This document shows, in pieces, positions 19,124 through 61,317 of a stretch of DNA of 64,000 bases. The notes below the pieces were generated by a model. The model saw only the letters and a list, made by a program, of their open reading frames with translations. It searched no databases and was not told where the DNA came from. How positions within the stretch are numbered: the first letter of the stretch is position 1; every line of letters starts with the position of its first letter. Position numbers and translations under genes: made by a program. Source of the DNA: Acidimicrobiia bacterium (GTDB lineage Bacteria > Actinomycetota > Acidimicrobiia > IMCC26256 > PALSA-610); the NCBI GenBank assembly GCA_038209365.1, contig JBBQXS010000013.1, positions 28,959 to 92,958 of the forward strand. The letters are read 5' to 3'.

Positions 19124-22100
19124 TCACTCCCCGGCGGCGCTCTCTTCCTCGGCGCTCGGCGCGATCCGTGCGAGCAGCACGGCGAGCTCGTCACGTGCCC
19201 GCTGGCGCTCGCGCCGCGCCGCATCCCGGATCTCCGCAGCATGACGCTCGGCTTCGGCGCGAAGGTCGGCCGCGTGCTGCTCGCCCTCGGCCCGCATGCC
19301 GGCGGCCTCGCGACGGGCGGTGTCGCGTAGCTCCGAGGCATGTTGCTCGGCCGCACGGCGGAGCTCGGCGGCGTCGTGCTCGGCCTCGGCGCGGTGCCCC
19401 GCGGCGAACTGCTCGGCCTCGTCCCGCAGCCTCGCGGCCTGCCGCCCCGCCTTCTCGAGGATCTCCGCTGCGTCGAGACCCGCGAGCTCGGCGTCGCGTG
19501 ATTTCTCGATCCGGTCCGCGGTCCGGGCGAGACGCTTGCGCTGCTTGGTGAGTCGCTGTTCGAGATCGGAGATCCGCTCGAACAGGTTGCCGATCAGATC
19601 GACCCGCTGCGCGTCGGCCAGCGCGGACTCCTGCACCCGCGTGCGGAGCTCCCGGGCATCCTCCTGGGCGAGCTGGCGGATGCCTTCGGCAGTGGTCAGC
19701 GCATCGCGCCGGATCGACTCCGCTTCCTGCAACGCCTGATGCCGGAGCGCTTCGGCCTCCGCTTGGGCCTGCGTGAGGAGCTCATCGGACTCGCGCCGGG
19801 CGTCCTTCGACGGGATTGCGGCGAGTGCCCGGTCGAGCTCGGTCTCCAGCTCCTCGGCGTGCGCGCCGAGCGCGTCGAGCGTGCCCTGGGTGTTCTCGAG
19901 CCGTTCTGCGAGGTCCTCGGCGTCCGCGCGGGCCTCGGTGGCGGCCGCGCGCAGCTCGTCCCGGTCATTCTCGTTGCCGGCCAGCACGCCTTCGAGACGT
20001 GTGATCTCGACGCGGGCCTCGGCCAGGTCGTTGACGGCCTGATCGCGGCCCGCAACCGACTCGACGAGCACGGCCTCGATGCGCACGATCTCCGCTCGTG
20101 CAGTGTCGAGCTGCGCGCGCGTTTCTTCATGGCGGGCGACCTCGGTGGCGAGCGCCTCCTCGAGTCCCGCGATCTCGGACTGCGCGTCTTCGAGCTGCGC
20201 GAGTGCGTCGTCGCGGTCTCCCGTGCGCTCTGCGATTTGGGCGGCAACGGCGAGTTCCAAACGCGAGGTCTCGGCGCGGGCGTGCTCGAGCTGCGCGAGC
20301 GCGTTGTCGCGCTCTTGCGCACGCTCGCCGACCGCCCTCTCGAGACGAGCGACGTCGGCTCGCGTGGCGTCGAGCATGGCTTGCGCAGCCTCACGCTCTG
20401 CCCCGTGGCTCTCGAGCGTCGCTTCGAGACGGGCCAGCCGTTGTTGCGCGTCACCCAGCGAGGCGATTGCCTCGTCGCGCTCGGACGTCCTGCGACCGAG
20501 CATGGCCCGCGCGTCGTTGCGTTCCGCGGTGCGGTCGGCCAGCGAGGCGCGGGCGTCGTCGCGTGCCCGTGCCGCTTCGTCGCGCTCACGTTCGCGCGCG
20601 CCGGTGATCTCGCTGAAGCCGGCAGCCGCTTGCGCAAGCTGCTCCTGCACGGCCGCTTCCTGGCGACGGGAATCGTCGAGCTCGGCGCGCACGTGGTCGC
20701 GGTCGCGGCCGATCTCGGCGAGCGCGCCCTCGAGCTCGCTCACCCGGGCACGTACGGCGTCGAGATCGCGGGTGTCGCTCTCGCGGTCCGCTTCCAGCTC
20801 CCGCAGCTCGGCCGCGCGCCGGCGGGCTTCGTCGAGTTGCGCGGCGAGTCCGTCGTGCTCGGCGTCCCGGTCGGCGACCGCGCGTTCCAACCCCTCAACG
20901 CGGGTCTCGGCGGTGGCCAGCGCCCGATCACGCTCGGCGATGCCGTGTTCGAGCTCGCCCAGCATCGACTCGAGGTCCGCGACGCGCCGGGCCAGGTCCG
21001 ATGCCCGGCGTTCGCCGCGCTCGGCGTCACCGGCACGCTGCGCGAGCGACCGCTCGAGCTCGGCGATCTGCCCGGTCAACTGCGTCCGGGCCCGGTCGTG
21101 CTCGGCGATCCGCGCCTGCGCCTGGGCCAGTTCGCGTTCGATGCCGGCGCGGTCGGCGTCGGCGTCCCGGACTCGCGTCTCGAGGCGGGCGGTGTGCTGC
21201 TGCAACTGCCCCAGCTCGGTACGCGCTTCGTTGCGTTCGGCGCCGTGGAGCTCGACGCTCGCGCGCAACGCCTCGATCTCGTCGCGGGCATGCCCGAGCG
21301 CCACCTCGAGCTCTCCCCGCCGGGCAATGGCGTCGTCGCGCTCCGCCGCGCGCCGGTCGACCTCGGAAGCCGAACCCTGCGCGGCCTCCCGGGCACGCGC
21401 CAGGTCGGCCCGAGCGGCGTCCAGCTGCTCGCGCGCCCGCTCGGCCTCGCGCTCGGCGGTCTCGCGAGCTTCTTTGATCGTGGCCAGCTCCGCACGTACC
21501 TGCTCGAGCTCGGCGTGCCAGCGTTCGGCGCGCGCGTCCGCTCGCTCGCCGGTGAGTTCGTCATCCGCGTCGGTTGTGTCATCCGGCGTGGGCGCTTGGG
21601 CTTCGGGCTCGTCGACCACGTCGACCGGTGGCTTCTCCTCGAACTGGGCTGCGTCCTGTACCGCGTCCACGCGTTCGGGAAACGGTGGCGCTTCTTCAAC
21701 CGACGATGGTGTGGGTGCCGCGTCGTGCATCGATGACGCGGCACGGTGCATCGTAGGTGTGAGGTCGTCGCCTTCCACACGCGACAGAAACTTCTTTGCG
21801 CTGTTGAGCGGGTCGTCGCCGGGCTCGACGCCGAGCTCGCCGAGCAACACGCGGATGCGGTCGACGGTATCGCGCGCGCCGGACGCGGTGGGCGGCGCGT
21901 CGCGTGGAACGGCGCGGTGCGTTGCCGCGAACACCTCGAAGCTCTGATAACCGAGCTTGTGCAGCGCGTCGGCTTCGGCGAGGAGTGCGTCGTTGTGCTC
22001 ACGACGCGCGCCTGCGGTCGCAAGGAACCGGTTCGCCTTCCGTTCACATTCGACGACGCGGCGGTGGAACTCCCATATCTCGAGGGCCGCGGCTTCGGGT

Positions 22101-22279
22101 GGCGGTGTCGTGGTGCCCGCGCGGTTCGCGGCGTCGCGGAGCGCGTCGAGCGGACCCGCGGTCGACGACGCGGGCTGGCGGGTTGCGTCAGGAGGGCCGG
22201 GCGAGGCGTCCTCCACGCCTCCATCATCGGTCACGCGCGGGTCCGCCTGAGATCGGCTCCATCCGAACCAGATCGACAT
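19124..22279 (-). CDS. Giant coiled-coil protein (1051 aa), function unknown
   Basis: ATG at 22279 with SD GGGAGG (6-nt spacer). About 260-aa acidic/Pro-rich head, then about 780 aa of E/R/A/D/L-rich helix with recurring (E/D)RDxA(L/V)xxLExAxxExxxLE modules. C-terminal AExHAAE(L/I)R repeats. Confidence 0.8.
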   Translation of the reverse strand: MSIWFGWSRSQADPRVTDDGGVEDASPGPPDATRQPASSTAGPLDALRDAANRAGTTTPPPEAAALEIWEFHRRVVECERKANRFLATAGARREHNDALLAEADALHKLGYQSFEVFAATHRAVPRDAPPTASGARDTVDRIRVLLGELGVEPGDDPLNSAKKFLSRVEGDDLTPTMHRAASSMHDAAPTPSSVEEAPPFPERVDAVQDAAQFEEKPPVDVVDEPEAQAPTPDDTTDADDELTGERADARAERWHAELEQVRAELATIKEARETAEREAERAREQLDAARADLARAREAAQGSASEVDRRAAERDDAIARRGELEVALGHARDEIEALRASVELHGAERNEARTELGQLQQHTARLETRVRDADADRAGIERELAQAQARIAEHDRARTQLTGQIAELERSLAQRAGDAERGERRASDLARRVADLESMLGELEHGIAERDRALATAETRVEGLERAVADRDAEHDGLAAQLDEARRRAAELRELEADRESDTRDLDAVRARVSELEGALAEIGRDRDHVRAELDDSRRQEAAVQEQLAQAAAGFSEITGARERERDEAARARDDARASLADRTAERNDARAMLGRRTSERDEAIASLGDAQQRLARLEATLESHGAEREAAQAMLDATRADVARLERAVGERAQERDNALAQLEHARAETSRLELAVAAQIAERTGDRDDALAQLEDAQSEIAGLEEALATEVARHEETRAQLDTARAEIVRIEAVLVESVAGRDQAVNDLAEARVEITRLEGVLAGNENDRDELRAAATEARADAEDLAERLENTQGTLDALGAHAEELETELDRALAAIPSKDARRESDELLTQAQAEAEALRHQALQEAESIRRDALTTAEGIRQLAQEDARELRTRVQESALADAQRVDLIGNLFERISDLEQRLTKQRKRLARTADRIEKSRDAELAGLDAAEILEKAGRQAARLRDEAEQFAAGHRAEAEHDAAELRRAAEQHASELRDTARREAAGMRAEGEQHAADLRAEAERHAAEIRDAARRERQRARDELAVLLARIAPSAEEESAAGE

Positions 22280-22330
22280 GGTGAGCCTCCCGGTCGACGG
22301 CGGACGAGCACGCGGGCGTCATGCGTGCCG

Positions 22331-57290: not shown

Positions 57291-58487
57291 GTGGTGATGC
57301 GGCTGTACGAGACTGCCCGTCGGGCCGTCGTGCCGTTCGAGCCCCCGCCCACGGTGCGCATGTACGTGTGCGGCATCACGCCGTACGACTCCACGCATCT
57401 CGGTCACGCCGCGACCTACCTGACCTACGACGTCCTCATCCGACGGCTCGAGGAGCTCGGCCACGACGTGCGGATGGTGCGCAACATCACCGACGTCGAC
57501 GACTCGATACTGCCCAAGGCCCGCGAGCTCGGCATCCCGTACCTCGAGCTCGCGGATGCCGAAATGGCTCGTTTCCACAACGACATGGCCGCGCTGGAGA
57601 TGCGGCCGCCGATCGCCGAGCCGCGCGCCACCGAAGCCATCGACCAGATCATCGAGCTCGTCGCGAAGTTGCTGGAATCGGGACACGCGTATCTCACGCA
57701 CGGCACCGCGTACTTCGACGTCTCGACGTTTCCCTCCTACGGCCAGCTGTCGCACTACTCCGAGCACCAGATGGTGCGCCTGGCACGCGAGCGCGGCGGG
57801 AACCCCGACGACCCACACCGACGCGCGCCGCTCGACTTCGTGCTGTGGCAGCCGTCGCTCGCCGACGAACCCGCGTGGCGCGCACCGTTCGGGGTCGGCC
57901 GGCCGGGTTGGCACATCGAGTGCTCGGCGATGTCGATGTACGAGAACGGTCCCACGCTCGACCTGCACGGCGGCGGCACTGATCTCATCTTCCCCCACCA
58001 CGAGAGCGAGATCGCGCAGAGCGAGTCGATCACCGGCAAGCCGTTCGTCAAGCACTGGCTGCACTCCGCGATGGTGAACTACGAGGGCGAGAAGATGTCG
58101 AAGTCGCTCGGCAACCTCGTATTCGTCAGCGACCTGTTGAAAGCCGCCGACTCGCGCGCCATCCGACTCGCATTGCTCCGTCATCACTACCGCCACGGGT
58201 TCGACTGGTACGACACCGACCTGGACGAAGGCACCGCAATGCTCCGTCGATTGCTGGCCGCAGCCGAACGAGATCGCGGTCCCGATCCCGCGCCGTTCGC
58301 CCAACGGGTGCGCGACGCGATCGACAACGATCTCGACACACCGCGCGCCCTCGACGCGCTCGACGACCTCGCCAGCGCGATCCTCTCCGGCGGCGACGAC
58401 CCCAACGCGCATGCCGTGTTGTGCGAGCTCGGACGGTTGCTCGGTATCGACCTCGAACGCCCGATCGGCGTCGGCGCCGCGCACTGA
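57291..58487 (+). CDS. mshC: Cysteine:1D-myo-inosityl 2-amino-2-deoxy-alpha-D-glucopyranoside ligase (MshC); CysRS paralog lacking the anticodon domain
   Basis: 398 aa. HLGHAATY, GWHIECS, KMSKSLGN, and ERGGNPDDPHRRAPLDFVLWQ typical of MshC. Too short for CysRS. Confidence 0.75.
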   Translation: MVMRLYETARRAVVPFEPPPTVRMYVCGITPYDSTHLGHAATYLTYDVLIRRLEELGHDVRMVRNITDVDDSILPKARELGIPYLELADAEMARFHNDMAALEMRPPIAEPRATEAIDQIIELVAKLLESGHAYLTHGTAYFDVSTFPSYGQLSHYSEHQMVRLARERGGNPDDPHRRAPLDFVLWQPSLADEPAWRAPFGVGRPGWHIECSAMSMYENGPTLDLHGGGTDLIFPHHESEIAQSESITGKPFVKHWLHSAMVNYEGEKMSKSLGNLVFVSDLLKAADSRAIRLALLRHHYRHGFDWYDTDLDEGTAMLRRLLAAAERDRGPDPAPFAQRVRDAIDNDLDTPRALDALDDLASAILSGGDDPNAHAVLCELGRLLGIDLERPIGVGAAH

Positions 58488-58611: not shown

Positions 58612-58704
58612 ATGTTCGCAGCGGATCGACGAACGCACCTCCTCGAGTGGTTCGTGTTCGCGGTCGTGATCATCTGGTGCGTCGTCGCGCTGGTAGTGGT
58701 CTGA
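58612..58704 (+). CDS. Possible small hydrophobic peptide (30 aa)
   Basis: MFAADRRTHLLEWFVFAVVIIWCVVALVVV. GGGAG lies only 1 nt before the ATG. Followed by the hairpin GCGGGG-aaac-CTCCGC. Not in the ORF track (below the length cut-off). Confidence 0.2.
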   Translation: MFAADRRTHLLEWFVFAVVIIWCVVALVVV

Positions 58705-58795
58705 GCGGGGAAACCTCCGCGTTCGTGCATTGACGCATTGGTAGCCTCGACCAGATATCCATCCGGCCGACCGAGATCCCCCGACTGAGATCCTG

Positions 58796-60049
58796 ATGAG
58801 CGAGCAGATCAGCGTCACGCTTCCCGACGGTTCCAGCCGGGAGTATCCACGGGGGACGACGCCCGCCGACGTGGCGGCCGCGATCGGCGCTCGGCTCGCC
58901 AAGGCGGCGGTCGCCGCCAAGGCCGACGGCGAATGGGTCGACCTGTCGGTGCCGCTCGTGCGGGATACGCGGCTCCAGATCGTCGTCGCCGACTCGGACG
59001 ACGGCCGCGAAGTCCTCCGCCACTCCAGCGCGCACGTCCTGGCCGAAGCGGTGACGCGCCTCTTTCCCGGCGCCAAGTACGCGATCGGTCCAGCAATCGC
59101 CGACGGCTTTTACTACGACTTCGAGCTCCCGGGCGGTGCGACGTTCTCCGACGACGACCTCGCGCGCATCGAGGACGAGATGCGCAAGATCGTGAAGGCC
59201 GACGAGCGGTTCGTACGCGAGGAGTTGAGCTACGACGACGCGCTGGCGCTGTTCCCCGATCAGCCGTACAAGCGCGAGATCATCGAGAAGGTGCGCACGG
59301 GTGATGCGTCGGCGGAGGACGCGGGCGAGGTCGCCATCGGAGAACGTCGCGTCTCGGTGTACCGCAACATGGACGATGGGCAGGTGAGCTTCGTCGACCT
59401 GTGCCGCGGCCCGCACGTCCCGTCGACCGGCCGGATCGGCGTCTTCAAGCTCACGAAGGTCGCCGGCGCGTACTGGCGCGGCAATGAGAAGGGCCCGATG
59501 CTCCAGCGCGTCTACGGCACCGCGTGGGAGTCGAATGCGGCGCTCGAAGAGCACTTGCTTCGCCTCGTCGAAGCCGAAAAGCGCGACCACCGCAAGCTCG
59601 GGGTCGAGCTCGATCTGTTCTCGTTCCCGGAGGAGATCGGGTCGGGGCTGGCGGTGTTCCACCCGAAGGGCGCACTCGTGCGACGCATCATGGAGGAGTA
59701 CTCCCGACAGCGTCACGAGGCGTCGGGGTACTCGTTCGTGAACACGCCGCACATCTCGAAGGAAGGCCTGTTCCAGACGTCGGGTCACCTGGAGTGGTTC
59801 GCGGACGGCATGTTCCCGCCGATGCACCTCGAAGAGGGCGGGCAGGGCGGTGAGGGCACGAACTACTACCTCAAGCCGATGAACTGCCCGTTCCACGTGC
59901 TGATCTACCGGCACGGCACGCGTTCATATCGAGAGTTGCCGTTGCGCTTGTTCGAGTTCGGTTCGGTGTACCGGTACGAGAAGTCGGGTGTCGTGCACGG
60001 CCTCACGCGTGTCCGCGGCATGACCCAGGACGACGCGCACATCTTCTGA
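58796..60049 (+). CDS. thrS: Threonine--tRNA ligase, N-terminal 417 codons, ending at an in-frame TGA that replaces the conserved Zn-ligand Cys codon
   Basis: TGS domain, editing-domain HSSAH, class II motif 2 FRYEKSG...[16 protein letters not shown] then TGA (60047-60049). Confidence 0.9.
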
Positions 60050-60061
60050 ACCAAGGATCAG

Positions 60062-60805
60062 ATGGCGGGCGAGCTCGCGTCGCTGCTCGACTTCGTGCTC
60101 GACCTTCTCCGCGACTACGGCCTCGACGACTTCTACCTCGAGCTCTCCACCAAGCCGCCCGGCAAGGCCGCCGGGTCCGACGACGACTGGGACGAGGCGA
60201 CCGAGGCGTTGCGCGCAGTGGCGTCGGGAAAAGACCTCGACCTCGTGCTCGACGAAGGCGGCGGCGCGTTCTACGGGCCGAAGATCAGCGTGCAGGCGCG
60301 CGACGCGATCGGACGCACCTGGCAGATGTCGACGATCCAGCTCGACTTCCAGACGCCGAAACGCTTCGACATCAACTACGTCGGCGCCGACAACGAGCGG
60401 CACACGCCGATCATGATCCACCGGGCGCTGTTCGGCTCGATCGAGCGGTTCTTCGCAGTGCTCGTCGAGCACTACGCCGGCGCGTTCCCGGCGTGGCTGG
60501 CACCGGTGCAGGCGGTCGTGCTCCCGGTGAGCGACCGGCACGACGCGTACGCGTTCCGCATCGTCGACCGGCTGAAAGCCGAGGGGTTCCGCGCCGAGAT
60601 CGTCGACGGCTCGGCCGGCGCACTCGGTGCGCGCATCCGCCGGTCGAAGGTCGAGAAGGTGCCGTACATCCTCGTCGTCGGAGACGACGACGTCGAGGCG
60701 GGCACCGTCGGTGTGAACAGGCGGGGGAGCGAGCGACCCGACAAGGGCGTCAGCGTCGACGTGTTCGTCGAGCAGCTCGCCGCCGAGGTCGCCGAGCACA
60801 AGTGA
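60062..60805 (+). CDS. thrS: Threonine--tRNA ligase, C-terminal 247 codons (same frame as 58796..60049, 4 sense codons after the TGA)
   Basis: DFYLELSTKP, PIMIHRALFGSIERF, motif 3, and an anticodon-binding domain. Continuous with the upstream ORF if the TGA is read through. Confidence 0.9.
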   Translation: MAGELASLLDFVLDLLRDYGLDDFYLELSTKPPGKAAGSDDDWDEATEALRAVASGKDLDLVLDEGGGAFYGPKISVQARDAIGRTWQMSTIQLDFQTPKRFDINYVGADNERHTPIMIHRALFGSIERFFAVLVEHYAGAFPAWLAPVQAVVLPVSDRHDAYAFRIVDRLKAEGFRAEIVDGSAGALGARIRRSKVEKVPYILVVGDDDVEAGTVGVNRRGSERPDKGVSVDVFVEQLAAEVAEHK

Positions 60806-61317
60806 GTCTCGAGCGCTTGTGGGCGGACTGGCGTGCAGAGTACGTGGCGAACGCCGACGGGCTGCTGGACACACGCGGATGCGTGATGTGCAACCTCGTG
60901 CACGCGACCGACGACGCGGAGGCGCTGGTGCTGGAGCGCACCGACGAGACGATCACGGTGATGAACCTGTTCCCGTACGGGTCGGGGCACCTGATGGTTG
61001 CTCCGGTGCGTCACGTCGCGAGCTATGTCGACCTCACCGACGACGAGAACACCGCGCTCGCACGTGCACAGGCGCGCGCGCTGCGAGCGATCCACGCGGC
61101 ATACACGCCGGACGGCGCCAACGTCGGCGCCAACCTCGGACGGGCCGCGGGCGCCGGAGTGCCCGGGCACCTGCACGTGCACGTGCTGCCGCGCTGGAAC
61201 GGCGACACGAATTTCATGACCGCGATCGCGGGAACCCGGGTCCTGCCGGAGAGCCTTCGCGCGGGTTACGACAAGGTGAAAGCAGCATGGAGCGGCTACG
61301 GTCCGACGCGTGAGTGA
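60802..61317 (+). CDS. HIT family protein
   Basis: GTG 60802 overlaps the thrS stop (GTGA). Histidine triad GHLHVHVLPRW. The longer track ORF 60493..61317 extends into thrS out of frame. Confidence 0.85.
   Translation: MSLERLWADWRAEYVANADGLLDTRGCVMCNLVHATDDAEALVLERTDETITVMNLFPYGSGHLMVAPVRHVASYVDLTDDENTALARAQARALRAIHAAYTPDGANVGANLGRAAGAGVPGHLHVHVLPRWNGDTNFMTAIAGTRVLPESLRAGYDKVKAAWSGYGPTRE

Follow-up and report, generated by a model that had tools for sequence, protein, structure and literature searches.

The internal TGA codon that interrupts the threonyl-tRNA synthetase gene (thrS) in the 64-kb stretch of DNA analysed here (hereafter, the window; 69% G+C, part of a 103.5-kb contig) is most likely a private one-base consensus or sequencing error, or else a null allele that is rare or of very recent origin, a reading to which we assign a probability of about 0.9. 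The lesion is unique, the relatives carry TGC at the same position, selection on the gene is unrelaxed, and no recoding signal accompanies the stop. Our verdict is that the lone stop in thrS is not a real biological feature. The original prediction had likewise put a sequencing or assembly error, or a nonsense mutation of very recent origin, first among its three explanations, and the evidence gathered here supports that ranking. The biological importance of this outcome is small. It removes a tempting false lead, i.e., a supposed first selenocysteine (Sec)-containing aminoacyl-tRNA synthetase, and it corrects the assignment of the interrupted residue, which is the equivalent of Cys388 instead of Cys334 of Escherichia coli threonyl-tRNA synthetase (ThrRS). 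In practice, a single in-frame TGA facing a conserved Cys says little in favor of Sec when the assembly derives from a metagenome.

The thrS gene encodes a class II ThrRS and occupies positions 58796..60805 of the forward strand (669 codons plus a stop). The single internal TGA at 60047..60049 deprives it of an uninterrupted reading frame. As described originally, the record contains two ORFs in the same frame (58796..60049 and 60062..60805), and the gap between them consists of this TGA and the codons ACC AAG GAT CAG. Pfam agrees that the joined ORFs make up a ThrRS with the expected order of domains, i.e., TGS, the second additional (editing) domain, the tRNA-synt_2b core and the HGTP anticodon-binding domain. 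The first fragment carries TGS, tRNA_SAD and profile positions 8-70 of tRNA-synt_2b, and the second resumes at profile positions 81-179 and continues into HGTP_anticodon; the TGA thus breaks the tRNA-synt_2b profile in two. Against ThrRS entries in the PDB, the product matched with E = 1e-165 across residues 3-665. A tblastn search of the window with the closest full-length homologue (P0001) returned a single HSP, spanning residues 1-668 in one frame at 93% identity, which indicates that thrS has no further lesion, again as first reported, and that the window holds no second thrS.

The neighbors of thrS are a class I CysRS/MshC-like ligase gene upstream (57291..58487, + strand) and a HIT-family gene downstream (60802..61317, + strand), the GTG start of which (60802) overlaps the thrS stop, itself a TGA. 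The ligase, thrS and HIT genes follow one another in this order in the five nearest relatives with DNA (L001-L005), and the HIT gene is syntenic in all relatives. The best explanation of the locus is that thrS is here an ordinary, single-copy, syntenic gene of the organism.

We aligned the window protein without gaps to E. coli ThrRS from residue 322, which corresponds to query position 13, up to the stop, using 1evk_A (residues 242-642) and 1qf6_A (full length) as references. The stop codon lies opposite residue 388 (F379-T-Q-D-D-A-H385-I-F-C388-T). The zinc pocket of the E. coli enzyme consists of Cys334, His385 and His511 (PMC7337905, which in its passage on these ligands cites Sankaranarayanan et al. 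1999). The equivalents of all three are intact in the window protein, i.e., Cys334 in KPMNCPFH (TGC, 59885..59887, + strand), His385 in DDAHIF (CAC, 60038..60040, + strand) and His511 in MIHRA (CAC, 60419..60421, + strand). The window protein therefore resembles the E. coli enzyme in every aligned ligand, and its stop falls at a non-ligand. This does not agree with the original prediction, in which the TGA had been placed at the zinc-ligand Cys334. The Cys388 equivalent lies three residues past His385, on the motif-2 strand directly after that ligand. The stop interrupts the catalytic core of the class II enzyme at a point between motif 2 and motif 3.

The Cys at the interrupted position had also been described as universally conserved, which does not hold across the family. 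We aligned 150 sequences, each representing a 50%-identity cluster and sharing 37-76% identity with P0001. At the stop column, the residues of 145 diverse ThrRS were C (n = 100), V (n = 17), L (n = 8), A (n = 7), I (n = 6), M (n = 3), T (n = 3) and D (n = 1), and thus V, L, A, I, M or T occupied the column in about 30% of the enzymes. Thr was found there in three close Acidimicrobiia homologues. The columns of the zinc ligands were far more uniform, with C in 142 of 146 representatives at Cys334 and H in 145 of 145 at His385. On the basis of these alignments, the Cys388-equivalent position appears to be a commonly Cys, replaceable position beside the zinc site, and no invariant metal ligand.

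The five nearest relatives with DNA, which share up to 93% amino acid identity with the window protein, all read TGC at the position of the stop. This indicates that the change in the window is a single C-to-A substitution at 60049, in line with the earlier remark that TGA is one base away from a Cys codon. None of the best 120 homologues, which were from Acidimicrobiia/Actinomycetota metagenome-assembled genomes (MAGs) and metagenomes and were 78-93% identical, was interrupted; all 120 had both the catalytic core and the anticodon domain, and 118 were 665-685 aa long. This list of 120 is blind to relatives split by a TGA, because fragments score below full-length proteins, and the case for non-conservation therefore rests on a cluster lookup and on DNA scans. 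In the cluster lookup, the 417-aa N-terminal fragment of thrS was a singleton at 90% clustering, found in one NCBI contig (103,513 bp), and the C-terminal fragment had five cluster-mates that span the site, all with DDAHIFC. Degenerate scans for T-Q-D-D-x-H-I-F followed by TGA in 185,579 species-representative genomes, and followed by TGR in JGI metagenomes, revealed no TGA-bearing close relative, the nearest TGA-bearing match being only 48% identical to the window thrS. The UGA is thus not conserved in orthologues of related species, given the TGC codons of the five relatives, the singleton fragment and the lack of a TGA-bearing relative in the scans.

Two of these five relatives (L003 and L005; ENA ERZ25039533) have several genes that are truncated relative to those of L001 and L002. 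For example, dnaE encodes 966 aa instead of 1165 aa and the F420 oxidoreductase 64 aa instead of 217 aa in L003, and thrS was called at 602 aa in L005. Such truncations suggest an assembly of long-read style that is prone to frameshifts, and they illustrate how frequent assembly lesions are among the close relatives.

Selection on thrS was profiled by the Nei-Gojobori method. For the part of the gene before the stop, dN/dS between the window and its relatives was 0.12-0.13, and for the part after it 0.11-0.20, as compared with 0.09-0.14 among the intact relatives themselves. The low values on both sides indicate that the lesion is either very recent or not real. The number of private residues in the window thrS (n = 10) was similar to those in L001 (n = 11) and L002 (n = 8). 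The gene has one lesion, with no frameshift and no indels, and it shows neither the relaxed selection nor the multiple lesions of a pseudogene. No other gene was split in the same way among about 40 other ORFs of the window with Pfam matches, including the dcw cluster, ileS and dnaE. Elsewhere in the window, two overlapping ORFs on opposite strands, of 1064 aa (-) and 744 aa (+), occupy 19127-22318 and have no Pfam match.

The sequence downstream of the TGA was inspected for signals of recoding. The small hairpin previously noted at about 60063..60085 (+ strand) as a possible, though not a claimed, SECIS does exist; it is, however, no more stable than expected by chance. When segments 60047-60110 and 60058-90 were folded and compared with dinucleotide shuffles and with the TGC-bearing relatives, the z scores were +0.54 and +0.57, and 136-139 of 200 shuffles were at least as stable. 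As the hairpin bases code for the conserved MAGELASLL, they are also present in the TGC-bearing relatives, and the local folds there are more stable than that of the window. No stem-loop is thus above chance or particular to the TGA allele. With Rfam, the window had no match that passed the gathering score, and a permissive scan of 59900-60300 returned only a chance match to Ocean-V (E = 4.9). ARAGORN detected no tRNA gene of any kind in the window, tRNA-Sec included, and Pfam annotation of about 50 ORFs revealed no SelA, SelB or SelD domain there. More ORFs of the window end in TGA than in any other stop, i.e., 27 of 42 high-GC3 stop-to-stop ORFs, thrS among them (the set is crude, with some shadow frames from the antisense strand), and the original statement that UGA is a normal stop here is borne out. 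Given these observations, nothing at the thrS locus supports Sec.

The same TGC-to-TGA lesion at the Cys388-equivalent codon of thrS was detected by the collection scans in 8-9 other contigs from at least seven unrelated lineages. These include, each with a genuine and otherwise open thrS, a Nitrosospira MAG with 4x coverage (L006), a Rhodobacteraceae MAG (L007), an Acidobacteria MAG (L008) and four metagenome contigs (L014, L015, L018 and L019). Two further contigs (L010 538-1657 and L013 1-300; 99% identical) hold one truncated thrS remnant with the same TGA. Apart from this pair, the TGA-bearing thrS sequences are mutually 35-74% identical. Three more scan matches (L009, L011 and L020) arose by chance and were rejected as cases of thrS with the TGA. 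In the remnant, homology stops about 83 codons past the TGA, and the opposite strand carries an unrelated ORF for a membrane protein; the remnant has the appearance of a true, decayed piece of thrS.

The Rhodobacteraceae case was examined in more depth than the others. Its best 120 homologues (79-91% identical) were all full length and its relatives L021 and L022 read TGC, which indicates that its change was also C-to-A, and the lesion was private to a single contig. We therefore rejected a clade of Sec-containing ThrRS, given that the TGA cases are unrelated (the closest independent pair being 74% identical) and that the relatives of L007 are full length with TGC. Such a clade would seem not to exist, at least judging by L007, the sole lineage checked in depth.

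The lesion recurs at about 1e-5 per genome (3 in 185,579 species genomes), a rate that we judge, on our own uncalibrated estimate, to be compatible with consensus errors or rare alleles. Clean substitutions to TGA at this codon numbered about 8 independent cases in the scans, vs none to TGG. TGG served as the control for random change at this codon. The TGG matches that were recovered are an intron boundary (L016), two frameshifts (L012 and L017) and a gene other than thrS (L011), and none is a clean substitution. G:C-to-T:A changes exceed G:C-to-C:G changes, and we attribute the asymmetry to this bias, which fits, although the counts are too small for proof.

Among the known phenomena with which the window can be compared, nothing sets it apart from the sporadic single-base nonsense lesions of MAGs, which are consensus errors or rare alleles. 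Here, as there, an isolated base change hits an essential gene and is private to one assembly, selection is unrelaxed, and the lesion recurs in scattered MAGs and contigs that are unrelated, including one with 4x coverage. The sole oddity is that C-to-A (TGA) was seen and C-to-G (TGG) was not, which agrees with the usual bias among transversions. Bacterial selenoprotein genes with Sec/Cys pairs, such as SelD and FdhA, share with thrS an in-frame UGA opposite the Cys of homologues. The thrS gene differs from them in having no clade-level conservation of the UGA and no SECIS-like hairpin above chance, in the nature of the residue, which is non-catalytic, non-redox and non-metal-binding, and in that no Sec machinery was seen in the window.

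If the preferred reading holds, a C-to-A change at 60049 would have turned the non-liganding, Cys388-equivalent TGC into a stop. That change would stem either from a mistake in sequencing or consensus calling or from a null allele, rare or of very recent origin, that entered an assembly of probable metagenomic origin. In the living population, the functional enzyme most likely has Cys at this codon.

Among the other readings, it is very unlikely that the TGA is genuine and fixed and that the cell survives by near-cognate readthrough of UGA, or by reinitiation that yields a two-piece ThrRS able to reassemble. A Shine-Dalgarno-like motif with an in-frame ATG directly past the stop (AAGGAT-CAG-ATG, 60053..60064, + strand; the ATG lies 12 nt past the TGA) could, if the allele is real, serve as a site of reinitiation. 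The lost residue is non-liganding at a column that tolerates V, L, A, I, M and T, and the three zinc ligands are intact, which also favors such survival. However, the motif and ATG are present in the intact relatives as plain coding sequence for the conserved K-(E/D)-Q-M (K-E-Q-M in these relatives), with AAGGAG or AAGGAA in four of the five, which indicates that the motif is older than the stop and did not evolve for reinitiation. Moreover, the break cuts through the catalytic core (between motifs 2 and 3), the split is found in no relative, and the substitutions expected to accumulate in a long-lived split are lacking. Some bacteria carry two thrS genes, and the remainder of the genome beyond the 64-kb window could hold a second, intact copy that does the work of a newly dead one. 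We regard this too as very unlikely, as the relatives have their sole thrS seen at the locus in the conserved ligase-thrS-HIT context, the window contains no second copy, and the gene has a single lesion, no indels and dN/dS of 0.11-0.20 on either side of the stop. The same lines of evidence (one lesion, low dN/dS on both sides and conserved synteny) do not support the decaying pseudogene proposed as one of the original explanations.

That the UGA encodes Sec is less likely still. The reading draws on the alignment of the in-frame UGA with the Cys of homologues and on the presence of selA, selB, selC and selD in some Acidimicrobiia (Actinomarina; bioRxiv 10.64898/2026.04.03.716425), so that membership of this class does not exclude Sec a priori. 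Against it, the TGA is private to this record with TGC in all close relatives, an observation that the original prediction had itself named as one that would speak against Sec. The stability of the hairpin does not exceed that of shuffled sequence (z = +0.57) and TGC-bearing relatives share its bases, the only Rfam match is the chance one to Ocean-V, and tRNA-Sec, SelA, SelB and SelD are absent from the window. A Sec would be expected to replace a catalytic, redox or metal-ligand Cys, and the residue at issue is neither metal ligand nor redox Cys and is aliphatic in about 30% of ThrRS. The low-GC cases with the same TGA (L007, L015 and L019) are almost unstructured downstream (-4.5 to -8.8 kcal/mol over 70 nt), and a literature search found no report of a Sec-containing ThrRS. 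Taking together the possibilities in which the TGA is true, fixed and decoded, i.e., as Sec beside the zinc site or through reinitiation 12 nt downstream to give a functional two-piece ThrRS, we consider them improbable, about as much so as a newly dead gene with a second copy. Reassignment of UGA to sense (genetic code 4 or 25) has a negligible probability, as TGA terminates the majority of the high-GC3 ORFs (27/42), including thrS itself.

The MshC/CysS-like gene and thrS are 308 nt apart, and two conserved elements were observed in this spacer. One is a hydrophobic small ORF of 30 aa (MFAADRRTHLLEWFVFAVVIIWCVVALVVV) at 58612-58704 (+ strand), which in L001 was annotated as a gene of the same 30 aa and is conserved in sequence in L001-L005. 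The other is an invariant block (TTGGTAGCCTCGACCAGAT) at about 58744-58775 (+ strand) with, after it, a small hairpin (CCAGAU-AUCC-AUCYGG), 25-50 nt before the start of thrS. No Rfam family matched the block and hairpin. Both are conserved even in L004, the most distant relative, and the hairpin has one compensatory pair in L003 and an A.C mismatch in the window. The block and hairpin may together represent a leader or operator element of thrS.
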